A stretch of 55,182 bases of DNA, taken from positions 1 through 55,182 of the forward strand of contig CAYUOH010000013.1 of the NCBI GenBank assembly GCA_964446385.1, given 5' to 3'. The position numbers and the translations under genes were made by a program. The notes beneath the pieces are model-generated. The model searched no databases and had not been told where the DNA came from. It saw nothing but the letters and a program-made list of their open reading frames with translations. The DNA is from an uncultured Oscillospiraceae bacterium. Its GTDB lineage: Bacteria > Bacillota > Clostridia > Oscillospirales > Ruminococcaceae. Within the stretch, counting starts at the first letter, position 1. Each line of letters starts with the position of its first letter. This document shows positions 2,183 to 19,318 of the stretch, one piece after another.

Positions 2183-4192
2183 TTATTCCTGCGCCTGGGG
2201 CACCAGTTCACTAACATTTGCTTCCTTGTTTGTGTCCTGCTCAATTGTCTTCATTATGGATTCTTTAATACTTTGAACCCGGGCGTTCTCTTCCTTGTTC
2301 CCACTGTTGAAATTGACGCCGAGCTTTTCGCTGATCAAAAGCCCAAGAAGCATCTCAAAGGCATTCACAGAGCTGCCTTGTTCCTGTCCACCCATGTTGA
2401 CCACGGTCTTTGGGACAATGTCAATTTGTGATTTCTCGATGGCTGCGGTAAATTTGCTCATGACATCCTGCACGACCTGATACTGCGGTCCACCGTATGC
2501 GCGGACCTGCTCTTCGATGGCTATGGCCTTGCCTATGCCTACTCTTGCCTCGCGTTCAGCCTCAGCCTCGGCAATCGCCTTGATCTTTGATGCCTCCTGA
2601 AGAGATCTTTGAAAATCGGCCTTACCCTGGTTGCTCTGAATCTGAATATTGATATCCGATTCTGTAAGCAACCTTTGCTGCAGCGCCTTGGACTCGGCTT
2701 CTCTGAGTTCTTTTTCCTTGCCTGCGGCTTTTTCCTGCTGCGCATAGGTTTCTATTCGCTCAACGGCTATCTGTCTGTCGCGTAGCTGTGCAAGTATAAC
2801 TTCAATCTTGTTGTCATTGGAGGACGCGGAGGGTGTACCGATGAGCACTTCCTCGAGCTCCAGGTTGTAATGCGCAAACTTTGCCTTCATTTCGAGGGAC
2901 GAGGTATTTTGAATATCATTTCTTTCATGAATAAGCTGTATGAGCGTCTTTGTCTGGCCGATGTTTTTGAAATATGCGGAGACCATCGGGTCAAGCGTTT
3001 GATCAACGAGCTTCTTGATATCGCCGAAGCGCTGGATTACCAGAGGCGCTTTCTTGTAGTCAATATGCATGACCACGGAAAGCGGAAGCGACGGTTCGAA
3101 AGCATCCTTTGTGATAAGGCTGACTTCCCTAAGATTTTCGTCAAAATTATGCGAACCTGTCTGGTTGCTGATCCACTTGAGTATGATGTTCGTTGTCGGG
3201 ACCCTTATGATCATTCCGGAATAAGTATTGAAGGCATATTTACCCGGCATGAGCGGTTCACTCCAGACACCGCGGAAGCCCTTTTCGACAAGTTCACCGT
3301 GCTTATATTCGTCTCCTGTGGAGTCAACACCTTTTTCACCAATAAAAGATACAACCACACCGACAAATCCGACGTCGATAAGGGTCTTGTCGATGAATTC
3401 CACTGTCGCAAAAAATCTGTTGATAAAGTATGTACCTTCGACAAGCGTTTGATACTGTCTGCCACGGAATCCGCCCGCTTTGAGAAATTTCTCAGGATCC
3501 TGAAAATTGTTATGGTATGTTTCCGGATTGTCCGGGTTATCACCGACGGCAGGTGCGATAATATCCTGCCTGTTGAGTGAAAGACCGTCGTGGACTGTTA
3601 CGATTCCGACCTTATCATCACTGCCTTTGATAACGATAGGTCTGAAGCCGTCACGCTCCCTGAGTTGTTCCGCCATATTGATTATCGTAGACTCCTCAGA
3701 TTTTGTGCCCATAGGCAGATAGTAAATTCTGTCCTGTGTTATGATGACAAACTGCGCAAGATTAAATGCGTATGTACCTTCACGAACAATGCCGCGCTGG
3801 GGCCCTTTCTGGCCTCCGTTAAGTAAAAAAGCTTTGGCATTTTGAAAATTACTGCCTTCAGGGACGACTTTGCCCAGAGTCTGAATAGGTTCAAGAGGCC
3901 GTCCGTCCCGAGCGAAGACATAAGCGATCTGCCCTTGCGGCACAGTCACAAGCGGACAGAGGTGCACAATATACATTAGCGGAGACAGAAGATGCAGACC
4001 GCCTCTGATAATCTGTGGCTGGAAACCGGCTTCGCCATTAAGTGCGATGATCTGCTCGTTCAACGAGCCCTTTGTAGACCACCATTTTTCTACTATCGCA
4101 ATCTTGTTGTTAGGTACAATTCTTAGACCGATAAGCCAAAAGAATAGAACAATGCCGAAAACAATTGAAATTGTAAGCAACAAACCGTCCAT
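2183..4192 (-). CDS. flotillin-like SPFH/band-7 domain protein (YqiK/FloT-like), 669 aa
   Basis: N-terminal TM helix, SPFH domain, and a long Ala/Glu-rich coiled coil (AEAEAEREARVG...) typical of bacterial flotillins; AGGAGG SD 6 nt upstream of the ATG at 4192. Confidence 0.8.
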   Translation of the reverse strand: MDGLLLTISIVFGIVLFFWLIGLRIVPNNKIAIVEKWWSTKGSLNEQIIALNGEAGFQPQIIRGGLHLLSPLMYIVHLCPLVTVPQGQIAYVFARDGRPLEPIQTLGKVVPEGSNFQNAKAFLLNGGQKGPQRGIVREGTYAFNLAQFVIITQDRIYYLPMGTKSEESTIINMAEQLRERDGFRPIVIKGSDDKVGIVTVHDGLSLNRQDIIAPAVGDNPDNPETYHNNFQDPEKFLKAGGFRGRQYQTLVEGTYFINRFFATVEFIDKTLIDVGFVGVVVSFIGEKGVDSTGDEYKHGELVEKGFRGVWSEPLMPGKYAFNTYSGMIIRVPTTNIILKWISNQTGSHNFDENLREVSLITKDAFEPSLPLSVVMHIDYKKAPLVIQRFGDIKKLVDQTLDPMVSAYFKNIGQTKTLIQLIHERNDIQNTSSLEMKAKFAHYNLELEEVLIGTPSASSNDNKIEVILAQLRDRQIAVERIETYAQQEKAAGKEKELREAESKALQQRLLTESDINIQIQSNQGKADFQRSLQEASKIKAIAEAEAEREARVGIGKAIAIEEQVRAYGGPQYQVVQDVMSKFTAAIEKSQIDIVPKTVVNMGGQEQGSSVNAFEMLLGLLISEKLGVNFNSGNKEENARVQSIKESIMKTIEQDTNKEANVSELVPQAQE

Positions 4193-8018: not shown

Positions 8019-8203
8019 ACCTTTTTTATATTCGAAATAAAGTCAGACGGGCACACTAGTGGAAAACAAATCTAATATATCGTGAATAATTATGATCATG
8101 CTGTTTTATAATTCTATATTTCAGTGTATTATTCTCAAGTAATCAACGTTATAATATATAGAATATATACTGCAATGATATTACCCGGGGATAGGTTATA
8201 AAC

Positions 8204-9610
8204 ATGGTTTTTAGCAGCATAACTTTTTTATTTTATTTTTTACCAGCATTATTCTTTTTATATTATCTGGCTCCCAAAAAGCTAAAAAACTTAATTATGA
8301 TAATCGGAAGCTTCGTGTTTTACGCATGGGGTGAAATAAGGTTTTTGCCGGTAATGCTGGCGTTGTCTGTCGAGGATTATATTTGCGGAAGACTTATGGA
8401 AAAAAACCGCGATAATGAAAAACGCAGGCGCCTGTTTATGCTGATATCGGTGATCAGCAATCTATCCGTATTGATTTTCTTTAAATATACAAATTTCTTT
8501 GTCGGTAATTTTTGTTCATTATTTGGAATTGAAAATATGGCGATCAATATAATACTCCCAATAGGAGTATCATTTAACTCATTTCAATCAATTTCTTATG
8601 CCATTGACGTATACAGGGGAACGACGAACTGCGAAAAAAGTTTCTATAATTACCTTACTTATACGACATTGTTTCCCCAGGTTATTGCCGGACCGATAGT
8701 TCGTTATGTAACGGTTGAAAACGATCTTGACGATCATAACATGACTGCTGACAGCCTTTCCCGCGGAATGCGCAGATTTATAATCGGCCTTGCAAAAAAG
8801 GTATTGATCGCGAATAATGTCGGCCTGCTTTGGAGCAATATATCATCAGGCGCTGCGGGTGAACCTTCCGTTTTACTGTACTGGCTTGGTATCACAGCCT
8901 ATTCCTTTCAGATATATTTTGATTTTTCGGGATATTCCGATATGGCAATCGGGCTTGCCCGTGTCTTCGGGCTTACTTTTGACGAAAACTTCAATTTCCC
9001 TTATATCGCAAAGAGTATAACCGAATTCTGGCGGCGCTGGCATATAACGTTAAGTTTATGGTTCCGCGACTATATATATATTCCGCTCGGTGGGAACCGC
9101 GTCTCGATAAAAAGACATATTCTTAATCTTCTTATTGTATGGGGGCTTACGGGTTTCTGGCACGGAGCTTCCTGGAATTTTGTCATATGGGGTCTGTATT
9201 TTGCGGTAATATTGATTTGCGAAAAATATTTTTTCATGAGTTTTCTGGAACGTTTACCGGCATTCCTTCGTCATATTTATACTATATTGCTTGTCATGAT
9301 AAGCTGGGTAATATTCTATTTTGAAGATATGGGCATGGTTATTGACTTTTTGAAGGGAATGTTCGGATTTAACGGGGTTCCCGCCCTTAACAGTCAATCG
9401 TTGTATTATTTGTTCGGTTACGGAATGATTTTTATTCTGGCGGCATATTTTTCCACCCCGCATTTCAGAAAAATAATCGATGCAACGGAAAAAAGCACAA
9501 GAAAATGGGTTTGGAGCGCGGCGACAGCGGTTTATATTTTAATATTCGTCTGCTGCATAGCTTATCTTGTAAACAGCACATATAATCCTTTTTTGTATTT
9601 CAGATTTTAG
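8204..9610 (+). CDS. MBOAT family membrane-bound O-acyltransferase (AlgI/DltB/PatA-like)
   Basis: Multi-TM protein with the FWRRWHITLSLWFRDYIYIPLGG motif containing the conserved MBOAT His; very AT-rich. Confidence 0.85.
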   Translation: MVFSSITFLFYFLPALFFLYYLAPKKLKNLIMIIGSFVFYAWGEIRFLPVMLALSVEDYICGRLMEKNRDNEKRRRLFMLISVISNLSVLIFFKYTNFFVGNFCSLFGIENMAINIILPIGVSFNSFQSISYAIDVYRGTTNCEKSFYNYLTYTTLFPQVIAGPIVRYVTVENDLDDHNMTADSLSRGMRRFIIGLAKKVLIANNVGLLWSNISSGAAGEPSVLLYWLGITAYSFQIYFDFSGYSDMAIGLARVFGLTFDENFNFPYIAKSITEFWRRWHITLSLWFRDYIYIPLGGNRVSIKRHILNLLIVWGLTGFWHGASWNFVIWGLYFAVILICEKYFFMSFLERLPAFLRHIYTILLVMISWVIFYFEDMGMVIDFLKGMFGFNGVPALNSQSLYYLFGYGMIFILAAYFSTPHFRKIIDATEKSTRKWVWSAATAVYILIFVCCIAYLVNSTYNPFLYFRF

Positions 9611-9620
9611 AGAGGCCTGC

Positions 9621-10748
9621 ATGAAAATTACCTTTAATAAAATATTCTTTTCGGTTTTTATATTGTTATGGTTTGCAGCCGTACTAATCAATATACTGAC
9701 TCCCTTTCGAAGTTACTCAGAAAACGAGAACAGATATTTTTCGAAAATCCCGGAATACAGCTTTGATACACTGATTAACGGGGAATTCATGAACAAGGTT
9801 AATGATTATGTAAATGACCAGTTTATCGCACGGGATAACTGGATAAGCGCCCAGAGCATGTTGGAATATTTCATCGGTAAACGTGAAAGCAATAACGTCT
9901 TTATATGCAAAGATTCTCTTATCGGTAAAATCGACGGACCCAATGAAGAATATATAAAGGATAATATAGCAGGCATATATGATTTTATTACTGCAACGGA
10001 AACGCCCGCAAGTCTTATGATAATCCCGGGCGCATCTGAAATACTGTCTCACAAACTTCCGTCGTTTGCCAGGGTTTGGGATCAGAAAGAGAAGATCGAT
10101 GAAATATATAATTCGATCAATTTCGCAAAATGTATTTCTGTCTATGAAACATTGTCAGATCACAAAGATGAGTATATCTATTACCGCACCGATCATCACT
10201 GGACGACATATGGCGCATACCTGGCATATACTGATTATTGCAATGCCTGTGGCTTAAGTCCGGCCGAATATGCCGCGGATAAAATAAGTAAGTCTTTTAA
10301 CGGCACTCTTTATTCGAGTTCCGGAGTAAGGTTTATTAATAGCGATACTATTGAAGCGTTTATCGTCGGATCCGATGCCTACTGCGATATTTTCGACGGA
10401 AATAATACACAACGATATGACAGCATATACTTCCCCGATTATCTTAATAAAAAGGATAAATACGCATATTTTCTGGGTACCAACCAGCCGGTTGTCACAG
10501 TATACGGAGATAATGTAAACGGACCCAGGCTGATTTTATTTAAAGATTCTTATGCTCATTGTATGGCACCGATGCTGCTTGAGCATTACAGTCAAATAAC
10601 TCTTGTCGATTTGCGGTATATTAACCGTCAGTTCGATTACTATTTTGACGTCAACGATTATGACGAAGCGTTGTTTTTATACAGTATTGATACTTTTGGC
10701 AATCAAAACGATATCAGTAAACTGAGCACCTATAAGAACGCGGATTGA
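9621..10748 (+). CDS. DHHW-motif family protein (AlgX/AlgJ/DltD-like partner of MBOAT)
   Basis: N-terminal signal-anchor, YRTDHHWTTYGAY (the DHHW signature); located immediately after the MBOAT gene. Confidence 0.75.
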   Translation: MKITFNKIFFSVFILLWFAAVLINILTPFRSYSENENRYFSKIPEYSFDTLINGEFMNKVNDYVNDQFIARDNWISAQSMLEYFIGKRESNNVFICKDSLIGKIDGPNEEYIKDNIAGIYDFITATETPASLMIIPGASEILSHKLPSFARVWDQKEKIDEIYNSINFAKCISVYETLSDHKDEYIYYRTDHHWTTYGAYLAYTDYCNACGLSPAEYAADKISKSFNGTLYSSSGVRFINSDTIEAFIVGSDAYCDIFDGNNTQRYDSIYFPDYLNKKDKYAYFLGTNQPVVTVYGDNVNGPRLILFKDSYAHCMAPMLLEHYSQITLVDLRYINRQFDYYFDVNDYDEALFLYSIDTFGNQNDISKLSTYKNAD

Positions 10749-10770
10749 CATTTATATTAGGAGGTTATTT

Positions 10771-11640
10771 ATGAGTACTCAATCAAAAAGGAACTTTTTC
10801 TATCGTGTTTTATGCGGTGCATTCATCGGTATCAGTATTATTGCGCCCGGTATAAGCGGAAGTATTATGGCGGTTATGATGGGAATATATGATGAACTTA
10901 TAGATATAATCTCAAATCCTTTCAGAAATTTTAAAAAAAATATCATTTACCTACTCCCCATGTGTATCGGTGCCGGATTAAGTATGGTTTTATGTCTTAA
11001 ATTGTTGAAATTCGTATTCGAATATTATCCTACGCCGGGATACCTGCTGTTTATAAGCCTGATTGCGGGCAGCTTCCCTGCAGTACTGCAGGAAGCAAAA
11101 GCAGACAAATTCAAAGTAAGATATATTTTCGGAGCGTTAATTGCCTTCGCATTTGCACTGACTATCGGTTTTCTGGCAAAGAACGATGTCGCTGTAACTG
11201 TTGATACGGCATCGGCAGGCAATACAGCAAGGATGGTATACCTATCTGCGAGCGGAGCTGTTGCGGGGATTGCAGGCATGATCCCGGGAATGAGCGTATC
11301 AATGATCCTTATGATGCTTAATGTGTATGAGCCTCTCCTTAATGCTGCCGCGGGATTTGATGTCATAACAATTTTTCCTGTCGGAATGTGCTTTGTAGTC
11401 GGAATGATCTTGTGTTCAAAACTTACTAAATTCATTTTTAGAAAATATCACGGCATCGGTTATTTTGCGGTTTTGGGTTTTATGTCAGGCTCGATTATAA
11501 GTATATTCCCCGGATTGCCAAACGGATTATTGGATTGGGTTCTGAGTATCATTGCTGTCGGTACCGGAATAGGTATTTCATATATATTTAAAATACTTGG
11601 TAAGAAAATCAATACAAGCAATAATTTACAAAATGAATAG
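10771..11640 (+). CDS. DUF368-like polytopic membrane protein (putative polyprenyl-phosphate translocase PopT-like)
   Basis: Two-repeat membrane protein with PGISGS and PGMSVS motifs in each half, consistent with the DUF368 family; assignment made from memory of the family motif. Confidence 0.5.
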   Translation: MSTQSKRNFFYRVLCGAFIGISIIAPGISGSIMAVMMGIYDELIDIISNPFRNFKKNIIYLLPMCIGAGLSMVLCLKLLKFVFEYYPTPGYLLFISLIAGSFPAVLQEAKADKFKVRYIFGALIAFAFALTIGFLAKNDVAVTVDTASAGNTARMVYLSASGAVAGIAGMIPGMSVSMILMMLNVYEPLLNAAAGFDVITIFPVGMCFVVGMILCSKLTKFIFRKYHGIGYFAVLGFMSGSIISIFPGLPNGLLDWVLSIIAVGTGIGISYIFKILGKKINTSNNLQNE

Positions 11641-11728
11641 TATGATCATTCGACTTTGACAGAAGGCTGGAGCAGACAGAATAGAAAGCAAACATACAGT
11701 ATATTGAAACATTGAAAGAAGAGAAAAC

Positions 11729-12283
11729 ATGGATGTAATTACAAATATAGATTTTTCTATATTGGATTTTATTTACACACATTTTTCATGCGAATTATTA
11801 GATTTTCTGATGCCGAGAATCACTTCTCTCGGTAATGCCGGTGTAATTTGGATATTGGCATCTTTAGTTTTAGTCTGCACAAAAAAATATAGAATGAACG
11901 GAGTTATAATGCTTATTAGTCTGAGTGTTGGTGCATTGGTGGGCAATATAATATTAAAGCCGCTAATCGCTCGTCCCCGTCCTTGCTGGATAAACGAAAC
12001 GATATCCTTGCTAATAAACATTCCAAGAGATTATTCATTTCCATCAGGACATACACTTTCATCAGTAATTGGGGCCGTTTCGTTTACTGTCGCTAACCGG
12101 AAATTCGGGCTTATTGCTATACCGCTTGCCGCTTTAATTGCATTTTCACGACTTTATCTTTATTTGCATTTTCCGAGCGATATTTTAGCTGGTATGGTGC
12201 TTGGCATAGTAATCGCGTACACGCTCTGGAAGATGCTTAACCCTCTATTAATAAAGCAGCAAACTGATAATTGCCCGAAATAA
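11729..12283 (+). CDS. PAP2 family phosphatase (undecaprenyl-diphosphatase-like)
   Basis: All three PAP2 motifs present: KPLIARPRP, PSGH, SRLYLYLHFPSD. Confidence 0.8.
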   Translation: MDVITNIDFSILDFIYTHFSCELLDFLMPRITSLGNAGVIWILASLVLVCTKKYRMNGVIMLISLSVGALVGNIILKPLIARPRPCWINETISLLINIPRDYSFPSGHTLSSVIGAVSFTVANRKFGLIAIPLAALIAFSRLYLYLHFPSDILAGMVLGIVIAYTLWKMLNPLLIKQQTDNCPK

Positions 12284-12702: not shown

Positions 12703-14121
12703 TTAAAACCCCTCGCTGATTATCAGATTACCATTGCCTGCGAATTTCGATGCTGCATCATACTTATGCCAAATCTGATATGTCACGCTGTAACCCTTGC
12801 AGGTAATCTTTACTGTATATCTTGCAGTGGGATCGTAGGAGAACATTTGATTAACATCTATGGAGAGATGCGTTTTTCCACCTCCCAGATCATCGTTGAG
12901 ATTAAAATACTGAATTTGTGTGATATCTAGAGGTACACCATTTCTACTTACTTCATAATCATAACTCAGGTAATGATTATTGCTTTTGGTGCGAATGTAA
13001 ATACTATAATGCCCCAAATTTGGTTGATCAATTTCTTCTACTCCGCCAAAGATATGACAGCTTATAGATCTCATTTCTTCCACAGGCCCGACAACGACTA
13101 AATCGAAAGCCATCCCGTCCATGTTATCTTCAAATTTAGCGTACTGGGTTTCATCTACAAATACCTTTTTCAGAGACCTGCAATCAACAAGAGGTGCGAT
13201 ATCAACAATCTGCGTACCGCTAATACACAATTCTTTCAACCGTGAAAGATTTTCGATGCCGGAAATATCTCTGATGGGATTTCCTGTAAGATCTAAATAT
13301 TCAATGTTGCGCAGTACCCAGAGCGGGCTCGCATCGGTAATCAGATTCGCTGCGACAGTAAGTTCCTTTAAATTCTTCAGTTGTGAAAAGTCGCTAACGC
13401 TTTCGATGCTGCCAAAATGTGCAGTACTCTCATTTCCGTGAAAAAAAACGGCCGGATTCTTCTGATGGTTCTCGTAGTCTATCTCTGTCCCAATGAACGA
13501 AGTATCACTGCGTTGTTCATCCACGCTTTCCCCATAAAGATAGACATGCTCAATATCCGACATTCGTCCGGAATATCCTAATTTTGCGAGCAGTGAATCC
13601 TCAGATACTTTCGCTCCGACCTGCGTGGCGAGAACTACAGTGAACGCAACTGTGAGCAATATGACTCCGCTTAGCCCCCAGGTCGTCCAACTAGCCGCGC
13701 GTTTTTGAGCAGTAGTAACCTGAAGATTCCGCATAAGTGTGGAAAAGACAAGTTTGTCCAGAAAGGCTTCCTCGGAAGCACAATCATGCCGTAAAATCCC
13801 TTGCTGCGTATTTAGCAGCAATCGCTGCGTGGGCGTAAGGCTGACTGGAGCAATATGCACAACCAAGAGAGGATTATTCATCTGAACAGCATATGTGATA
13901 GTTCGGTTGACCTCGTAGTTTTCTAATGCTGCAGGCGATAAAAGGAGCAAAACAAGAGCAGACTTTTTGATACGCATTTTATCAAAACGTGTACTCGGCC
14001 AGACTTCATATCCCTTATCCCGTAAAGCCAAGAGCACCTTCATTACATATTCACTGTCTTCCGGTGCGAACATCGCATAGACAAACGGTTTGCCATTTCC
14101 AGAATAAGGTTTGAACTCCAT
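12703..14121 (-). CDS. membrane protein: N-terminal divergent TIR domain, 1 TM helix, C-terminal leucine-rich repeats plus a beta-rich domain (472 aa)
   Basis: The N-terminus PFVYAMFAPEDSEYVMKVLLALRDKGYEVW aligns to the TIR fold but the FISY/CE motifs are degenerate; TM at about aa 148-168; internalin-type LRRs (LKELTVAANLITDASPL..LDLTGNPIRDISGIENLSRLKELCISGTQIVDIAPL); AAGGAGG SD 12 nt after the upstream gene stop. Confidence 0.7.
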   Translation of the reverse strand: MEFKPYSGNGKPFVYAMFAPEDSEYVMKVLLALRDKGYEVWPSTRFDKMRIKKSALVLLLLSPAALENYEVNRTITYAVQMNNPLLVVHIAPVSLTPTQRLLLNTQQGILRHDCASEEAFLDKLVFSTLMRNLQVTTAQKRAASWTTWGLSGVILLTVAFTVVLATQVGAKVSEDSLLAKLGYSGRMSDIEHVYLYGESVDEQRSDTSFIGTEIDYENHQKNPAVFFHGNESTAHFGSIESVSDFSQLKNLKELTVAANLITDASPLWVLRNIEYLDLTGNPIRDISGIENLSRLKELCISGTQIVDIAPLVDCRSLKKVFVDETQYAKFEDNMDGMAFDLVVVGPVEEMRSISCHIFGGVEEIDQPNLGHYSIYIRTKSNNHYLSYDYEVSRNGVPLDITQIQYFNLNDDLGGGKTHLSIDVNQMFSYDPTARYTVKITCKGYSVTYQIWHKYDAASKFAGNGNLIISEGF

Positions 14122-14132
14122 ATTCTCCTCCT

Positions 14133-15269
14133 TTACTCGGTCACTACCACTTCAAAGTTACCGGTAATTATATCCGAAACATAAGGCACCATATCAAGGC
14201 TTACATAGAGTTTCTGTAAGCCCGTCATTTCCAGAGCAGGTGATAAATCTGTAATACCGGTGTGTGAGAGTTTTAGAACTGAGATATTGTCCAAACCGGA
14301 AAGAGGCATCAAATCCTTAACATCATTACCGGAAAGATCAAGGTATGTTAGTTTGGTAAGATTCTGTAGCGCCGTCAAATCAGTAATGTTTTGATAACAG
14401 ATCGCCAGCTCATTGAGATTGATCAGTTTGGAAATGGCGGTCAGGTCGGAGATATCGCCACGCTGCACCGCTGTACCGCCGACGCAAAATGCGCCGTTCT
14501 GATAATCGATTCCGCTGCGAGTGGTTACAAACGCGTTTCCGCAACAGTAGAGAGCTTCACCGCTAGTCTGAGAGATAATAAGATCACGCATCATCGTACT
14601 GGACCAGGTGGTCATCTCAATGATCTGTGCGCTTTCTTCCGAATTGCCCGGGGTGACGGCCAAAGTCGTCGTGGTTAATCCGGGTTTCTCGCCAAACCAG
14701 CCGCGCATATATCCCAACAGTGCAACGCCGAATACTACAGCCAACGCGATACCGACTATTCCGACGATCAATGCTGTGTTCAGGTGTTTGGGGTTTGGAT
14801 CACGCTCAATTTCATAGCCTTCCTTGCCGTCTCCGATCAGTTCATTTTGCAACGCACCGGATTGAATGAGCCTTTCTGCGGTATCAGCAGCTATGCTACC
14901 CGCAGTAATATTTGTCGCGGGCGAAAGCTGCATCTTCATTCCCGGTGGCATCGGTGCGTCGTCCATGCACACACATGCCATCGTCTTTTTCGCATCAACG
15001 GCGAAATTGATTTCCCGCTCGCAGTTACGGTTTGTGTTGAAATTTTCTGACGGAAAGAATAGCACGACGGTAGCGTTTTCAAGATGATTGGCGATAAACT
15101 CTGCCCAGCGTGCGCCCGCCTCGATGCCTTCGTCGTACCAGACACGATATCCGCGTTTGTGTAGTTCCTCCGCAATCGGTAACACCGCAACGCTGTCCAC
15201 GTGTGCATAGCTGATAAAAATGAATGGTTTTTCTCCGCGGTAGACCGGAAACCTCGCTCTTGAAGCCAT
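14133..15269 (-). CDS. membrane protein: N-terminal canonical TIR domain, 1 TM helix, C-terminal leucine-rich repeats (378 aa)
   Basis: KPFIFISYAHVD...RVWYDEGIEAGARW...NCEREINFAV are the classic bacterial TIR motifs, including the putative catalytic Glu; TM IVGIVGIALAVVFGVALLGY; LRRs LTKLTYLDLSGNDVKDLMPLSGLDNISVLKLSHTGITDL. Confidence 0.8.
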   Translation of the reverse strand: MASRARFPVYRGEKPFIFISYAHVDSVAVLPIAEELHKRGYRVWYDEGIEAGARWAEFIANHLENATVVLFFPSENFNTNRNCEREINFAVDAKKTMACVCMDDAPMPPGMKMQLSPATNITAGSIAADTAERLIQSGALQNELIGDGKEGYEIERDPNPKHLNTALIVGIVGIALAVVFGVALLGYMRGWFGEKPGLTTTTLAVTPGNSEESAQIIEMTTWSSTMMRDLIISQTSGEALYCCGNAFVTTRSGIDYQNGAFCVGGTAVQRGDISDLTAISKLINLNELAICYQNITDLTALQNLTKLTYLDLSGNDVKDLMPLSGLDNISVLKLSHTGITDLSPALEMTGLQKLYVSLDMVPYVSDIITGNFEVVVTE

Positions 15270-15465
15270 TTTCCTTTACCTCAATATTATTAAAATCCTG
15301 TATATGATTGTCAATGGCTGAACAGATATGATATTGCATTCCACGGTGTAACCAAGTACATCATTTCAGAAGCGATATGTGCTCGCTCTGCTTTATGCAG
15401 ACATTCCACGAGTCTACCATAGCGTGCGTATATTTTTAATACTATTATATCTAGAAAAACTTATA

Positions 15466-15494
15466 ATTGAAAGGGTTGCACTTTAATGCTATAT
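15466..15494 (+). promoter_or_regulatory. candidate sigma-A promoter TTGAAA-17-TATATT for the HD/RyR operon
   Basis: Hexamers with a 17-nt spacer about 95 nt upstream of the start at 15590, in the divergent intergenic region. Confidence 0.35.
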
Positions 15495-15589
15495 TTCTGT
15501 TAAAAGAAATATTCACTTTTATGGTAGCTGAATAATAATCGTTATGTATTAATGTGGCACTAACCCGCAATAAGGAAGGAGTTCGAGAA

Positions 15590-17617
15590 ATGAGTTATCG
15601 CGCGCTCAATAATATGCGAAATAAGAATCTTGATAAGTATCATTTGGAACACACAGTCCGAATTCCCCCTTTACCTGAGACAAAACGGAATTATGGCAAA
15701 GAGGCACTGCTTTTTATCCGCGACTGCTGTGAAGACCTAAAATTTGACTATAGTACAGAATCACGCAGATCTTTTTCCGATTCTGACGGCAGAAGCGCCG
15801 GGAAAAACCAGATTCCATACAACATGGAGCGTGACCTGGATCGCCTCAGTTTTGAAGTGGCAATCGGGCGGTTTCTCTCCTCCGGTTCAAAGGAGGACGC
15901 ATTTGATATCTATTATTGCTACTGCGAGATTTTCAAGCCGTTTGGCACAGGTTATGATTCCACGGGGTTACTGCTGGAACTTTTGAGCGAGCACGAATCC
16001 AATGCAAGTTCGCTTCTTATGAAGCATCGTGACCATTATTCTCACAGCGTATATGTTTTCCTTATCGGGCTTGTCATCTACAAGAATCTATCTTCATTTC
16101 GGACAGCTTACAACAGTAAGTACGGATTTAAGGACAGCAAAGAAGCCTCGTGCCATTTTCTTGAGTATTGGGGACTAACCTCTCTGTTTCACGATGTCGG
16201 ATATCCCTTTGAAATCGCGCATCAACAGATGAAATCTTATGTATGCAAACTGGATTCGAATAACAACGACGCCTTCGGTTTTTCACCATATGTGTCATAC
16301 CGTAATGTAGACGAGTTTGCGTTATCCAGGCTCGGCGATTTAAACGATTTTTACGCAAAAGCTATCATCGAACGCCTTTGCGAGGGTTACCTAAGCCACA
16401 CGGACATCGAACCCTATTATGCAGAGCACCAGCTTCAAAAGGCCCTGAAGGATCGCGCGATCCATGAAAATCCGACAGAAAAGGATTACCTCTACATGGA
16501 TCACGCTTATTTCAGTGGACTAATTATGGCAAAGACCTATCTCAAGCGACACAAGGAAATTGACCGCTATGAAATGTTGCCGCCTGCGGTGCTGGATGCG
16601 TTATGTGCCATAATTCTGCATAACAGCCTGTTTAAATTTACCATGCGCTCTTTTTTACACACGCAGGAACCTCTGCGCCTCTCCGACGGGCAGCCCCTCT
16701 GTTACCTGCTGATGTTTTGCGATGAGTTGCAGTGTTGGGACAGAACCTCCTATGGGCAGAACAGCCGAAATGGTATTTACGCGTTTGATTTTGATCTGGA
16801 GTTTACGCGTGACGGAATGCGCTGGATTTACTATTATGACCAAAGTTACGAAAGAAAGGTATTGAATGCGAAGTCATACGCCGACATGCTCTATGATGGG
16901 TATAGGAAAAAAACAGGCGCAGTGCGGAACGGTCGCAGCAGGTTTGTGGACGACATAGATGAAATCACCTTCATCCGAGACATCGTTACAGCATTTGAAC
17001 CGAATGTGAATACGCCAGATCCCAGTGCAATTATAGAAACTCGTATCGAAAAAAAGCAGAAGCGCACGGGACTGTATCTTTCTGATAGCAATTATCTCAA
17101 CCTATATTCTTTTGCCCTCGCTCTTAACGGGCGCTACGCAGGTGCCAAAACTGTAGAGCAAATGAAAACAGCCTTTGAAGAAAACCTGTCGCTTGAATAT
17201 AAACTTTCCAATATTGCGCAAGCAAAGGGATTTGCCGCGCAGTTGGAGTCAATCGACTGTTTTTATACCGACCGAGCGGTTGATTATTTACCCGTGACCG
17301 ATTTTCATGCGCTTACACAGGAAAGGGGACACGAGAACGACCTTATGAAAATAGCCGTTGCGGAGCATGAACGCTGGTGCAAAGAGAAGTGCGCAATGGG
17401 TTGGGATTACGGCACCGCTCATGTTGAAGCTGACATACTGCCCGACGGCAGTAAAATGAACGACAACGAAATGCGCGAGCGCACAAGGCTGCACCACGAC
17501 ATAACTGACTTTGACCATCTGGATGCGCAGGAGCATTTTAAGGACTCCGATCCGATGGAACATATGCTGGAGTTGATTCGAGAATACGACGGGCTGACCA
17601 TTTATCGCACCGAATGA
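15590..17617 (+). CDS. HD-domain phosphohydrolase fused to a C-terminal RyR (ryanodine-receptor-type) domain, 675 aa
   Basis: HD signature H(RDHYSHS)...LFHDVGYP...D; C-terminus AEHERWCKEKCAMGWDYG...HHDITDFDHLDAQEH matches the RyR-domain consensus (HE.W...GW.YG). AAGGAAGGA SD before the ATG at 15590; the ORF-track start at 15554 is less likely. Confidence 0.7.
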   Translation: MSYRALNNMRNKNLDKYHLEHTVRIPPLPETKRNYGKEALLFIRDCCEDLKFDYSTESRRSFSDSDGRSAGKNQIPYNMERDLDRLSFEVAIGRFLSSGSKEDAFDIYYCYCEIFKPFGTGYDSTGLLLELLSEHESNASSLLMKHRDHYSHSVYVFLIGLVIYKNLSSFRTAYNSKYGFKDSKEASCHFLEYWGLTSLFHDVGYPFEIAHQQMKSYVCKLDSNNNDAFGFSPYVSYRNVDEFALSRLGDLNDFYAKAIIERLCEGYLSHTDIEPYYAEHQLQKALKDRAIHENPTEKDYLYMDHAYFSGLIMAKTYLKRHKEIDRYEMLPPAVLDALCAIILHNSLFKFTMRSFLHTQEPLRLSDGQPLCYLLMFCDELQCWDRTSYGQNSRNGIYAFDFDLEFTRDGMRWIYYYDQSYERKVLNAKSYADMLYDGYRKKTGAVRNGRSRFVDDIDEITFIRDIVTAFEPNVNTPDPSAIIETRIEKKQKRTGLYLSDSNYLNLYSFALALNGRYAGAKTVEQMKTAFEENLSLEYKLSNIAQAKGFAAQLESIDCFYTDRAVDYLPVTDFHALTQERGHENDLMKIAVAEHERWCKEKCAMGWDYGTAHVEADILPDGSKMNDNEMRERTRLHHDITDFDHLDAQEHFKDSDPMEHMLELIREYDGLTIYRTE

Positions 17618-17671: not shown

Positions 17672-19318
17672 GTGGGCATCCCGATTGTTGTCGGCGTAAC
17701 CGGCCATCGCTCACTGCGAACGCAAGATCTTTCGATGCTGCGCGCAGTTGTTTCAGCACAGTTGGAAAAGTTGATTGTTTCATACCCGAATTCCCAGTTT
17801 GTCATGTTGAATTCTATTGCATCCGGCGCGGATACTCTCTGCGCAATGGTCGCACTGGAACTGGGAATACGGCTGATTTGCCCGTTACCTATGCCGATTG
17901 AAGAGTATCGCAAAGATTTTACCGGCACGGACGCGACTTCATTTGATGCGCTGATTCTGCAGGCCGAGCGCCTTTTTGTTGTACCTGATAACGGTTTGTC
18001 TCCAAATCTTACGAGGGATGAGCATTATATGAACTCAGGCAGATACATCGCAAGGCACAGCTGCCTGCTTCTTGCTCTTTGGGACGGAATGCCCGCTAAA
18101 CCGGACGGTTGTGGAACGGCGGAGACTGTATCTTTTATGCTCGGTGCCAGCGACGAAGCGACTACCGGCTGCCTTAAAGCAGCGAACAATGGCGCGGTTC
18201 TCCACATATATACGCCTAAGCAAGGAGAAGAGTGCGAATTACAAAATCCATCTGTCCGTCTTCTGGAAAACGTACCGGGCTGTCTGAAAAACACGCTGGA
18301 GACAATAGATACATTCAACACAGATACAAGGAGAATAGCCAGCGACGTTAAAAAGACTGAGCCGCTCATAACAAAGGGTATCCTTTCCGAGATGCCGGAA
18401 GACATACAGCAGCTTCATGAGGTATATCAGACGTCAGATAGCCTGTCACTTCGGTTTCAGGCAAGATACTTACATGCGATCCGATATTTATCTATATTCG
18501 GCGCGATGCTGGTGCTATTTTTCCTACTCTACGACGAAATGGAGAGTAATTTGTTTTTAATTTTATACGGGCTGCTGATCCTGTTTTATGTGCTGACTTT
18601 CGTGAGAATTCGTAAAAGCCAAGCGCATGAAAAGTACCTTCGTTACCGTATGCTCTCCGAAACGCTTCGCGTGCAATTTTTTCTCTGCGCAGCCGGATCA
18701 AACGACAATGTAGCTGACGAATTTACCTGGACACAGAAGCAGGAAACTGCATGGATTAAGCAGACCATTTCGGCGCTGCTTATCGGTGAATCAGCAAGGC
18801 AATCGCTACCCGATGAAACGATTAATAAATTGTGGATTGAAGGTCAGCTTTCTTATCATGAAAGTGCATATCGTCGCTCCTTCGGTCAGCAACATATCCG
18901 TGAGACCACCGCAAATTGGGTGCTTGCTGCTACCTTTGCTCTCTTTATCCTTGTATTAGTGCTGGAGTTCACGTTTGATTCTGCCATGACAAAGACGCTG
19001 TTCCGGAAACCTTTCCCGCCTCTTATGCTCTATCACAGCGGACAAACGGTCACTCTCCGAAACCTTATGAAAATACTGCTCGGCACGGTTTCGGCTATAG
19101 CCGTGTTTTTCACTAATTATTACGGAAAACTCTCCTTGGGCAGAAAGAGTATCGACCATAACCGTATGGCTCACCTGTATGCCTCGGCGAAGGAACAGTA
19201 TGCATCCCAAAAAAATGATTACATGTCTCTTTTCATCGCGCTTGCACGCGAGGAGATCATCGAGATCGGCAACTGGTTTTCCTATAGCCGAGAGAATGCG
19301 CCTTCTTTTCAGATATGA
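17672..19318 (+). CDS. SLOG-like (LOG/DprA/YpsA-type Rossmannoid) N-domain fused to a C-terminal multi-TM (SLATT-like) region, 548 aa
   Basis: GTG start 5 nt after an AAGGAG SD; N-terminus IVVGVTGHR...SGADTLCAMVALELG...DGCGTAETV resembles the LOG-family GGxGTxxE and DprA GxD..AH motifs; four predicted TM helices after aa 250. Confidence 0.5.
   Translation: MGIPIVVGVTGHRSLRTQDLSMLRAVVSAQLEKLIVSYPNSQFVMLNSIASGADTLCAMVALELGIRLICPLPMPIEEYRKDFTGTDATSFDALILQAERLFVVPDNGLSPNLTRDEHYMNSGRYIARHSCLLLALWDGMPAKPDGCGTAETVSFMLGASDEATTGCLKAANNGAVLHIYTPKQGEECELQNPSVRLLENVPGCLKNTLETIDTFNTDTRRIASDVKKTEPLITKGILSEMPEDIQQLHEVYQTSDSLSLRFQARYLHAIRYLSIFGAMLVLFFLLYDEMESNLFLILYGLLILFYVLTFVRIRKSQAHEKYLRYRMLSETLRVQFFLCAAGSNDNVADEFTWTQKQETAWIKQTISALLIGESARQSLPDETINKLWIEGQLSYHESAYRRSFGQQHIRETTANWVLAATFALFILVLVLEFTFDSAMTKTLFRKPFPPLMLYHSGQTVTLRNLMKILLGTVSAIAVFFTNYYGKLSLGRKSIDHNRMAHLYASAKEQYASQKNDYMSLFIALAREEIIEIGNWFSYSRENAPSFQI

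Follow-up and report, generated by a model that had tools for sequence, protein, structure and literature searches.

The 55,182-nucleotide contig analysed here (the window) carries two adjacent genes whose products join a TIR domain, one hydrophobic span and leucine-rich repeats (LRRs) in that order, and the question is what such a pair might sense and how it might signal. TIR-2 (14133..15269; 378 aa) is the upstream member of a two-gene operon and TIR-1 (12703..14121; 472 aa) the second; both ORFs are on the minus strand, as are all their features given below, exactly where an earlier note made from the sequence had placed them. The two are separated by 11 nt, with a Shine-Dalgarno sequence, AGGAGG, 6 nt 5' of the TIR-1 ATG. 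The TIR-TM-LRR order proposed in that note was confirmed by Pfam domains and hydrophobicity and, as judged from sequence conservation, is not a chance pattern, because the TIR-2 and TIR-1 families are both kept, at 30-99% identity, in dozens of metagenomic genomes. Beyond a divergent intergenic region (15270..15553) lie two plus-strand genes, one for an HD-like protein with a RyR domain (15554..17617; 687 aa, true start probably the ATG at 15590) and one for a SLOG-fold protein with SLATT-like hairpins (17672..19318; 548 aa). For each of the two transcription units the promoter-like sequence that matches best lies in the intergenic region, TTGACA-17-AATAAT on the minus strand (15314-15286) and TTGAAA-17-TATATT with a TG on the plus strand (15467-15495), each a consensus match only; in the window the two gene pairs are thus divergently transcribed and do not form a single operon. 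The functional unit is nonetheless the four-gene cluster and not the TIR pair alone. With modest confidence, we read it as a Thoeris-like NAD-derived signalling system in which a membrane receptor, with its sensor outside the cell, serves as the TIR generator, a reading in which we infer the topology, the catalysis and the defence role of the cluster.

TIR-2 comprises a predicted catalytic TIR domain (aa ~15-140; 14850..15227), a single TM helix (aa ~163-187; 14709..14783; Kyte-Doolittle peak 2.98) and a cap followed by about four internalin-type LRRs. The LRR ectodomain (aa ~271-378; 14136..14459) contains 22-aa repeats that begin at 282 and 304 and run to the C-terminus. Pfam TIR_2 is matched with 70.3 bits (E 2.7e-19), LRR_4 with 38.6 bits and LRR_8 in addition, and NCBIfam internalin models match locally. 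Both the FIFISYAHVD and NCEREI motifs are present, and the predicted catalytic residue, E86 (codon 15012-15014), is a Glu at the canonical W/C-x-x-x-E position of catalytic TIRs; its counterparts in the alignment are the Glu within the motif 'tEyEL' of a bacterial TIR domain protein of solved structure (7uxr) and that of 'YEL' in the TLR15/TLR2 TIR chain (7ylf). That TIR-2 retains this Glu had been noted before, and the observation extends to the whole family: E86, N82 and C83 are invariant in 27/27 full-length homologues, which are 30-98% identical. TIR-2 is therefore predicted, from sequence, to be an NAD+-cleaving or cyclising TIR enzyme.

TIR-1 has the layout pseudo-TIR domain (aa ~10-135; 13717..14094), single TM helix (aa ~145-170; 13612..13689), variable juxtamembrane or cap region, LRR domain (aa ~239-345; 13087..13407; repeats at 248, 270 and 292, a period of 22 aa) and an unclassified C-terminal beta-rich domain (aa ~346-472; 12706..13086). 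LRR_4 scores above its cut-off in both proteins (67.8 bits in TIR-1), and in both the LRR domain is short, with about four repeats. The earlier note would have given up its interpretation had the N-domains not folded as TIR; that of TIR-1 still does so, with a TIR_2 score above the Pfam gathering cut-off (30.3 bits, E 6.5e-7; cut-off 28), the TIR fold in an AF2 model (pLDDT 83) and an hhalign match to the TIR-2 family at a probability of 100 (E 3e-40). Neither the window copy nor 30 homologues has the catalytic Glu of NAD+-cleaving or cyclising TIRs. Its position is taken by T74 (13900-13902) in the window and by A, T, I, M, V or G across the family (Glu in 0/30 homologues), so the degeneracy first noticed in this one protein is a family-wide loss; the BB-loop region is also shorter by about nine residues. 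By sequence, TIR-1 is a conserved pseudo-TIR and a paralogue of TIR-2. The extra beta domain at its C-terminus, likewise proposed earlier, is present in the AF2 model as strands between 354 and 470 with pLDDT mostly >90. Together with the juxtamembrane cap it forms the two most divergent regions among TIR-1 paralogues of the same genome, which share 32-36% identity in the beta domain. We predict that TIR-1 is a sensor or specificity subunit.

The 548-aa neighbour has a cytoplasmic YpsA-like SLOG domain (aa 1-200; 17672-18271) and two 2-TM hairpins, at 269-311 and 417-480. Sequence-only searches with this protein recovered no SLOG assignment, and it is the AF2 model (pLDDT 89.7, pTM 0.89) that points to one: the best Foldseek match of the SLOG model is YpsA (2nx2; E 3.6e-5, TMt 0.62), and the remaining top matches, DprA, ShosA, Moco carrier protein and TM1055, are all SLOG members. 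The modelled domain has the Rossmannoid fold of the superfamily together with its Gly-rich and GxT/E-type motifs, here conserved as GVTGHR, SxAxGAD and CGTAE. The hairpins give sub-threshold matches to NCBIfam SLATT_3 (6.6e-5, 23 bits vs a cut-off of 45) and SLATT_4 (15 vs 55 bits), and 5/5 members of the family weakly match Pfam DUF4231, which we take to be a member of the SLATT clan. The protein is a predicted signal-gated membrane effector. The YpsA-like SLOG clade includes cADPR-sensing members, SLATT has been predicted to be a pore gated by ADPr derivatives, and TIR-SLATT neighbourhoods are known (PMC9503650).

The 687-aa neighbour is soluble, having no TM segment, and carries an R12-type RyR domain (17321..17614, plus strand). 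All eight members of its family match Pfam RyR (best 1.3e-15), and the family profile (A5) matches the RyR repeats in the PDB at E ~1e-36; the window copy scores 20.8 vs a Pfam cut-off of 27.4 bits because of an insertion. The His-x-x-Trp ... His ... Asp residues that go with the profile match in RyR/R12 domains (PF02026) are there as H605, W608, H647 and D664, the first two and the last invariant in 8/8 members of the RyR family and H647 kept in 6/8, and their spacing in relatives (0/+3/+25/+42) is that of H75, W78, H100 and D117 of RyDEP. These four RyDEP residues bind and cleave 2'/3'cADPR, and both activities were reported in 2026 for RyR domains of phage proteins (PMC13232231). The remainder of the 687-aa protein is marked by the invariant motifs RDHxxHS, FHDxGYPxE, DH, LHN and CDELQxWxR, with RDHxxHS, FHD, DH, H and D invariant in 18 diverse sequences. 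PF01966 (HD) is matched below threshold in 7 of these 18 members (best E 0.0043), and the region has no match among PDB sequences; the HD-like assignment is a tentative one drawn solely from the motifs and the sub-threshold matches. Some relatives fuse the HD-like and RyR regions to a weak, sub-threshold C-terminal SLOG-type match. We predict that this protein either hydrolyses the TIR product or serves as another receptor for it. The presence of a SLOG-fold and SLATT-like protein and of an HD-like and RyR protein as divergent neighbours strengthens the earlier idea that the TIR pair takes part in NAD-derived signalling.

The TIR-2, TIR-1, SLOG/SLATT-like and HD-like/RyR families recur together in many Clostridia. 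The cluster is conserved among those of the gut and rumen, where the family is abundant (Christensenellaceae, Lachnospiraceae, Ruminococcus and Oscillospiraceae). TIR-2 is single-copy, TIR-1-type genes are present in one to five tandem copies per locus, and at least one of the latter, and up to five in tandem, is adjacent in 13/13 loci with a close TIR-2 orthologue. A RyR or SLATT gene accompanies the TIR-2 family in 7 of the 10 orthologue loci with adequate flanks, and a TIR with a catalytic Glu is thereby linked to an effector with ligand-binding and toxic domains, as in Thoeris-type systems. Gene order varies: a SLATT gene lies opposite to and upstream of TIR-2, four to five TIR-1 genes and RyR in L001/L015 and L016, L004 reads RyR, SLATT, TIR-2, TIR-1 and L007 reads TIR-2, TIR-1, SLATT, two TIR-1 genes are found in L002, and more distant TIR-TM-LRR variants in L008 and L011 are also accompanied by RyR followed by SLATT. 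The association is modular and not obligatory. The TIR pair stands without RyR or SLATT inside the available flanks of the Lachnospiraceae/Ruminococcus loci L018 and L019; in L020 (Lachnospiraceae) it lacks SLATT-type and HD-RyR-family genes and adjoins another protein whose C-terminus is RyR-like; and in L013 RyR and SLATT have no TIR gene inside 7 kb. Each genome compared has different genes on the flanks, which indicates a patchy, island-like distribution. TIR-1 paralogues of one genome are 55-83% identical in the pseudo-TIR vs 28-54% in the ectodomain (83% vs 28-41% in L002), and this pattern of a conserved pseudo-TIR with diverging ectodomains suggests receptor-like evolution. It had been proposed that a catalytic subunit is paired here with a sensor or regulatory one, and the case for this is strengthened by the TIR-1-type genes that adjoin each close TIR-2 orthologue and by paralogues that keep the pseudo-TIR while diverging outside it.

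We propose that TIR-2 and TIR-1 insert N-in/C-out, so that the LRRs and the TIR-1 beta domain would face the wall or exterior, and that the diversified ectodomains bind a surface ligand, most plausibly damage to the envelope or a component of an adsorbing phage, with the TIR-1 paralogues as interchangeable specificity subunits. TIR enzymes require TIR-TIR association, and for this reason clustering driven by the ligand could bring together the cytoplasmic pseudo-TIR and TIR-2 domains and so assemble an active TIR-2 site. TIR-2 would then turn NAD+ into a cADPR-type messenger, which would bind the YpsA-like SLOG domain and make the membrane permeable through the SLATT-like hairpins, with abortive infection or arrested growth as the outcome. 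The same messenger may be bound by the RyR domain of the HD-like protein, and this domain might then switch on the HD hydrolase, making it a second effector; alternatively, its conserved His/Asp pair might cleave the messenger and provide a threshold or a reset. A bolder version of this proposal, which we put forward tentatively and hold to be possible but doubtful, is that the cluster is a bacterial pattern-recognition receptor: extracellular LRRs, diversified in pseudo-TIR arrays, would sense a phage or surface ligand at or before genome entry and activate a TIR enzyme whose cADPR-type product acts on RyR and on a SLOG-gated SLATT pore, with RyR glycosidase activity as the off-switch. If true, this would be a prokaryotic counterpart both of outside-in signalling by Toll-like receptors and of the animal TIR/cADPR-ryanodine-receptor axis.

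One alternative, unlikely in our judgement, is that the system is not immune at all and senses the envelope or environment through a host, dietary, cell-wall or neighbour-cell ligand, the NAD-derived messenger regulating the SLOG-SLATT channel and the HD-RyR phosphohydrolase for physiology and not for killing. The window would suit such a role, as its other genes are housekeeping and envelope genes (MBOAT, DHHW, PAP2, Usp, PHO4) and not a defence island, and PADLOC found no system-level match in it, with generic TIR-model matches for TIR-2 only. The system is also found on the chromosome in several Christensenellaceae and is all but missing from viral contigs, where there is one match each at contig ends; against this, the flanks vary in every genome and the gene content is modular. 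Host or surface ligands are the classical targets of internalin-type LRRs, yet paralogue arrays of variable copy number with fast-diverging ectodomains are typical of arms-race receptors, and SLATT, SLOG and TIR have so far been characterised in conflict systems.

Another explanation, which we rate as improbable, is that TIR-2 is itself the effector, clustering leading to bulk NAD+ depletion as in TIR-pAgo/SPARTA, AVAST-TIR and CBASS-TIR with no diffusible messenger, and that RyR and SLATT are an independent two-gene system. The loci in which each pair stands without the other (L013 on one side, L018-L020 on the other) and the divergent transcription in the window would fit such a division, as would the pAgo-associated TIR models among the best PADLOC matches of TIR-2; a survey of Thoeris systems also cautions that TIRs not yet verified may be effectors that deplete NAD+ (bioRxiv 10.64898/2025.12.03.692087). 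What argues for a shared messenger instead is that the four families co-occur repeatedly in varied orders and orientations, including with distant TIR-TM-LRR variants (L004, L008, L011), that TIR products are the known ligands of domains found in both neighbours, and that nothing in the RyR and SLATT pair is an evident source of a signal.

The Thoeris-like reading with an extracellular sensor depends on topology, for which the N-in/C-out orientation with outward-facing LRRs suggested in the earlier note is borne out as a prediction. TIR-1 and TIR-2 each contain one hydrophobic segment (~145-172 and ~161-190), a search for an N-terminal hydrophobic signal found none in either, and exactly one TM without a signal peptide is predicted in 27/27 TIR-2 and 29/30 TIR-1 homologues. 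Mean K+R counts are higher in the N-side than in the C-side flank (3.6 vs 1.4 in the TIR-2 family, 2.3 vs 0.8 in the TIR-1 family), so that one TM, no cleavable signal and N-side positive bias, the sequence features of a type II single-pass protein, are found family-wide. The LRRs of both proteins are accordingly predicted to lie outside. It is highly unlikely that the segment is a mere anchor or the topology reversed, with TIR and LRR both cytoplasmic (or TIR outside) and the LRRs sensing an intracellular ligand like those of NLRs. The flanks of the window proteins themselves have equal K+R counts (2 vs 2), the ectodomains contain several conserved Cys and the TM helix is poorly modelled by AF2, although the low-pLDDT helical segment of TIR-1 (144-169) is what would be expected of an isolated TM helix. 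A single span necessarily puts TIR and LRR on opposite sides, and 56/57 homologues have one hydrophobic helix of ~20-25 residues between the domains; the family-wide positive-inside bias places the N-domain inside, an N-terminal domain of ~140 residues without a signal peptide is unlikely to be translocated during membrane insertion, and TIR enzymes need cytosolic NAD+. Equally hard to credit is the idea that both TIR domains are pure protein-protein scaffolds, as in TLR/MyD88, which recruit the HD-RyR or SLOG-SLATT protein directly with no enzymatic step, given that 27 TIR-2 sequences, down to 30% identity, all keep E86 and the N-C-x-R-E around it and that the partners carry nucleotide-ligand domains (SLOG, RyR) and not TIR or death-fold adaptor domains.

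Among characterised systems, type VII Thoeris is a validated combination of TIR and SLATT (ThsB and ThsH) with a cADPR signal, type I uses a SLOG sensor (ThsB with the SIR2-SLOG protein ThsA), and type III has several TIR proteins and a SLOG-domain effector, its signalling uncharacterised (bioRxiv 10.64898/2025.12.03.692087). The cluster resembles type VII, and the TIR-SLATT neighbourhoods predicted by Aravind's group, in that a TIR with a catalytic Glu adjoins a SLATT-type 2TM-hairpin membrane protein, with the expected logic of a TIR product causing ligand-gated membrane damage. It differs from type VII in having a membrane-anchored TIR with a predicted extracellular LRR (the TIR sequences in the survey's supplement are short, ~130 aa), one to five accompanying pseudo-TIR paralogues, a YpsA-like SLOG domain at the N-terminus of the SLATT-like protein and a fourth, HD-like/RyR component. 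A SLOG domain as presumed receptor of a TIR-made ADPR derivative is shared with types I and III, and more than one TIR-family protein per system with type III, but the output here is SLATT-like and not SIR2 as in type I, and the extra TIRs, compared with both types, are predicted to be catalytically dead and membrane-bound. Membership of type III was considered and rejected, as NCBIfam ThcB4 matches the TIR region only, at 23.7 bits (E 1.9e-5) vs a cut-off of 220.

The likeness to animal Toll-like receptors is one of convergent architecture and not of orthology. Identity with them was rejected, as TIR-TM-LRR proteins without a signal peptide share no more than the parts list: order and orientation are inverted (type II, N-terminal TIR), there are about four internalin-type 22-aa repeats vs a horseshoe of 19-25, and TIR-2 is predicted to be an enzyme and not an adaptor-recruiting scaffold. 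Class 1 internalins were likewise rejected (43.8-56 bits vs cut-offs of at least 1050; no N-terminal signal); unlike those of Listeria, these proteins have an N-proximal TM anchor, about four repeats and no signal peptide, LPXTG or GW anchor. The Thoeris survey and related papers treat TIR sensors as answering infection inside the cell, and the systems tested in the survey were drawn largely from bacteria related to E. coli and B. subtilis (bioRxiv 10.64898/2025.12.03.692087). An outward-facing, fast-diversifying LRR on a membrane TIR generator would, if true, be to our knowledge a new outside-in mode of sensing in TIR immunity, possibly at the adsorption stage, and the nearest prokaryotic parallel to the logic of Toll-like receptors, arrived at with the topology turned round. 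The pairing of an inactive-TIR sensor with an active-TIR executor is also that of plant RRS1/RPS4, although here there is no NB-ARC/STAND module, the proteins are membrane receptors and not cytosolic NLRs, and the TIR-1/TIR-2 heterodimer is a prediction; the pair may offer a simple bacterial model for the sensor and executor TIR pairs of plant NLRs. The HD-RyR protein keeps the same His, Trp, His and Asp as phage RyDEP and other RyR (R12, PF02026) proteins, but its RyR domain is encoded by the host, in one chain with a large HD-like domain and in a cluster with TIR genes, and is not a viral anti-defence protein. With a host RyR domain beside a TIR enzyme, it becomes directly testable whether cADPR signals made by TIRs and the R12 domains of ryanodine receptors have the ancient link that has been proposed.

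The two open reading frames reported in the earlier note are both present on the minus strand: TIR-2, the predicted catalytic TIR-TM-LRR protein, at 14133-15269 (378 aa), and TIR-1, its neighbour of the same architecture, at 12703-14121 (472 aa). A gap of 11 nt separates them and an AGGAGG ribosome-binding site precedes TIR-1, so that they look like one transcription unit led by TIR-2. The proposed TIR-TM-LRR order was borne out, as Pfam TIR_2 matches (TIR-2, 70.3 bits; TIR-1, 30.3 bits; cut-off 28) and LRR_4 matches above cut-off flank a single strongly hydrophobic segment in each protein; the repeats have the 22-residue period of the internalin type. Membership of the internalins was ruled out by NCBIfam model scores. 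Full-length homologues were compared for both TIR-2 (n=27, 30-98% identity) and TIR-1 (n=30, 40-99%). N82, C83 and E86 of the TIR-2 NCEREI motif are invariant, and E86 lines up with the W-x-x-x-E Glu in solved TIR domains, in agreement with the claim that TIR-2 keeps the putative catalytic Glu. Profile-profile alignment of the two families runs through TIR, TM and LRR (probability 100%, E 3e-40) and marks them, on sequence grounds, as paralogues over all three; T74 of TIR-1 falls opposite E86, and the BB-loop region of TIR-1 has a deletion of ~9 residues relative to TIR-2. The catalytic column of the TIR-1 family holds A, T, I, M, V or G and never Glu, which fits its description as degenerate, yet the N-domain is the most conserved portion of the protein, and TIR-1 therefore appears to be a conserved pseudo-TIR rather than a decaying one. 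The extra C-terminal beta-rich domain ascribed to it is found at aa 346-472, confidently modelled but unclassified.

The divergently transcribed genes beside the TIR pair are members of the same conserved cluster, as determined from the neighbourhoods of homologues of TIR-2 and of a 548-aa SLOG-fold, SLATT-like protein (17672-19318, plus strand) with an HMM scan of 92 loci. Four families recur: the TIR-2 type in one copy, the TIR-1 type in one to five tandem copies, the 548-aa family (SLATT in the gene orders below) and an RyR-domain family (RyR), represented here by a 687-aa protein (15554-17617, plus strand). Orthology in the compared neighbourhoods was borne out by BLAST, gene order differs among loci and the flanking genes are different in each genome compared. 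For example, a Christensenellaceae chromosome carries SLATT<-(soluble TIR)<- ->TIR2->TIR1x4->RyR, while other loci read RyR->SLATT->TIR2->TIR1 (L004) or TIR2->TIR1->SLATT (L007), and in two (L008 and L011) more distant TIR-TM-LRR variants (402/1273 aa; 288/326/528 aa) adjoin RyR->SLATT. Among named relatives, Clostridiales and Christensenellaceae MAGs are the closest. Two Christensenellaceae loci (L001, 6487-7599; L002, 6535-7596) have, between the SLATT gene and TIR-2, a further TIR_2 protein (353-370 aa) in which no TM is predicted; the cluster can therefore take in a TIR component of a third kind.

The 687-aa reading frame has its listed start at a GTG (15554), but all homologues begin at the position of its M13, so the true start is probably the ATG at 15590, giving 675 aa. 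The protein is predicted to be soluble and ends in an RyR (R12) domain; Pfam RyR was matched by 8/8 family members, and the family profile matches PDB RyR repeats at E about 1e-36. Ligand residues in the family take the form His-x-x-Trp, His at +25 and Asp at +42, corresponding to H605, W608, H647 and D664 in the window protein. Its N-terminal 330 residues contain invariant RDHxxHS, FHDxGYPxE, DH, LHN and CDELQxWxR motifs and define a family of 836 representatives (E <= 1e-3), and an HD assignment is plausible but unproven: 7 of 18 diverse members gave sub-threshold matches to PF01966 (HD), and a sequence search of PDB matched nothing. Two relatives of this HD-like part (15851-16873), P0299 and P0319, combine HD-like and RyR domains with a weak C-terminal DprA/YAcAr (SLOG-type) match; such a three-domain fusion would hint, in the manner of a Rosetta stone, at a ligand shared by RyR and SLOG. 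The 548-aa protein was modelled with high confidence (pLDDT 89.7, pTM 0.89), and its N-terminal 200 residues match YpsA, DprA, ShosA, the Moco carrier protein and TM1055, all of them SLOG-superfamily folds. By sequence alone neither the family against PDB nor the SLOG part against Pfam gave a match, so the SLOG assignment depends on the structure model. Two 2-TM hairpins make up the C-terminal half of the protein, which weakly matches SLATT_3, SLATT_4 and DUF4231.

Starting from the observed domain architectures, the presence or absence of the Glu, the assigned folds and the recurring linkage of the genes, we propose, as the reading towards which we lean, that the cluster conducts Thoeris-like NAD-derived signalling via a membrane TIR receptor. 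The TIR proteins would insert N-in/C-out and their ectodomains would bind a ligand, which would drive association of the pseudo-TIR with TIR-2 and so activate it; TIR-2 would then produce a cADPR-type messenger and a SLOG-gated SLATT would damage the membrane, with the RyR domain either serving the HD-like enzyme as a second receptor or clearing the signal as a glycosidase. Support for the receptor idea comes from within-genome TIR-1 paralogues, in which the pseudo-TIR is conserved (55-83% identity) while the juxtamembrane cap (28-40%), LRR (40-54%) and beta domain (32-36%) diverge; those of L002 are 83% identical inside and 28-41% outside. The same parts could belong to a non-immune surface-sensing pathway, for which the housekeeping and envelope genes neighbouring the cluster and viral contigs essentially devoid of the system both speak; we consider this unlikely. 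The association of the TIR pair with RyR/SLATT is modular, with Lachnospiraceae/Ruminococcus loci holding the pair without these partners and one locus (L013) holding RyR and SLATT alone. It is more doubtful still that TIR-2 is itself the effector, through bulk NAD+ depletion, with RyR and SLATT as an independent two-gene system.

As to the membrane receptor that we favour, exactly one TM helix is predicted in 27/27 TIR-2 and 29/30 TIR-1 homologues, an N-terminal hydrophobic signal is absent from both window proteins and no homologue has a signal-peptide-like N-terminus. Mean K+R is higher in the N-terminal than the C-terminal TM flank (3.6 vs 1.4 for TIR-2; 2.3 vs 0.8 for TIR-1), a positive-inside bias that points to the N-terminal flank in both families. 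An N-domain of ~140 residues is not expected to be exported without a signal peptide, and a TIR enzyme requires cytosolic NAD+. Together these points predict a cytoplasmic TIR and an extracellular LRR, and make cytoplasmic LRRs very improbable; that the TIRs, with E86 invariant in TIR-2, are a scaffold and nothing else is equally hard to credit.

TIR proteins of Thoeris systems produce ADPR-derived signals, with a SLOG sensor in type I, several TIR proteins and a SLOG-domain effector of uncharacterised signalling in type III, and a SLATT effector responding to canonical cADPR in the validated type VII (bioRxiv 10.64898/2025.12.03.692087). The cluster would work like a Thoeris system. Type III membership was ruled out (23.7 vs 220 bits, NCBIfam model), and neither LRR nor RyR is mentioned in the text and examined supplements of that study. 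The YpsA-like SLOG clade has cADPR-sensing members, SLATT has been predicted to be a pore gated by ADPr derivatives, and neighbourhoods of TIR with SLATT have already been noted (PMC9503650; PMC7159879). RyDEP, phage RyR-domain proteins, bind or cleave 2'/3'cADPR via H75, W78, H100 and D117 (PMC13232231), and these His, Trp, His and Asp residues are kept in the RyR family of the cluster. PADLOC left TIR-1 and the RyR protein unmatched, gave generic TIR-model matches for TIR-2 and, for the 548-aa protein, a marginal, chance-level match to PD-T7-3 (E 0.015); because matches were absent, chance-level or generic, the cluster was assigned to no PADLOC system. TIR-2 and TIR-1 share the parts list of TLRs, but order and predicted topology are inverted, and the likeness is convergent and does not make them TLRs; in plants, RPS4/RRS1 offers a parallel to the pairing of an active with an inactive TIR gene. 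The literature searched yielded no account of bacterial TIR-TM-LRR proteins or receptors and none of host TIR+RyR operons; the original SLOG/SLATT paper (Burroughs et al., 2015), in which this neighbourhood may be mentioned, was outside that search. TIR-based nucleotide signalling is of a known kind; should the predicted mode of sensing be confirmed, it would be of a new one.

Carriage by phage was ruled out, as IMG/VR has one match each for the TIR-2 (L094, 8001-9134) and SLOG-SLATT (L095, 931-2574) families, each at the end of a predicted viral contig, from which the cluster may sometimes adjoin prophages. A compositional island was unconvincing: the cluster has 43-48% GC and most of the window ~45%, the low-GC stretch lying upstream at 4-13 kb. 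Directly adjoining TIR-1 are four plus-strand envelope genes (8204-12283) encoding an MBOAT O-acyltransferase (8204-9610), a DHHW/AlgX-like SGNH protein (9621-10748), a VCA0040-like undecaprenyl-phosphate translocase-like protein (10771-11640) and a PAP2 phosphatase (11729-12283); together they resemble a module for lipid carriers or for the O-acylation of a cell-wall polymer. A 669-aa SPFH/Band-7 domain protein (2183-4192, minus strand), ~8 kb upstream, is apparently unrelated. Elsewhere, some related loci adjoin known conflict genes: an AbiEii + HTH toxin-antitoxin pair (L011/L012, 9095-10467), which in L011 lies beside smpB, and in L006 (8138-12940) a module of bpMoxR/AAA + transglutaminase. 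No conflict genes of these kinds neighbour the cluster in the window.

In a Lachnospiraceae MAG (L020), a TIR2/TIR1-like pair without SLATT and HD-RyR genes is preceded by a 611-aa protein (8088-9923) whose C-terminus is RyR-like (hhalign probability 86) and whose N-part differs and is unannotated; the 552-aa unannotated protein downstream (13241-14899) was ruled out as a diverged SLATT protein (hhalign probability 0.2). In L018, gyrA abuts the TIR pair. Six further Clostridia loci (L047, L063, L073, L064, L039 and L049) have tandem arrays of two to four TIR-2-related proteins (~270-620 aa) with no RyR/SLATT nearby. Related Clostridia proteins, often in tandem arrays, commonly have an N-terminal TIR followed by one TM and a C-terminal domain that varies. 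Of 100 TIR-2-HMM matches with a recognisable betaA motif, 57 have one and only one TM helix behind the TIR, and gut Firmicutes may hold a large class of membrane proteins with an N-terminal TIR that is as yet unstudied.
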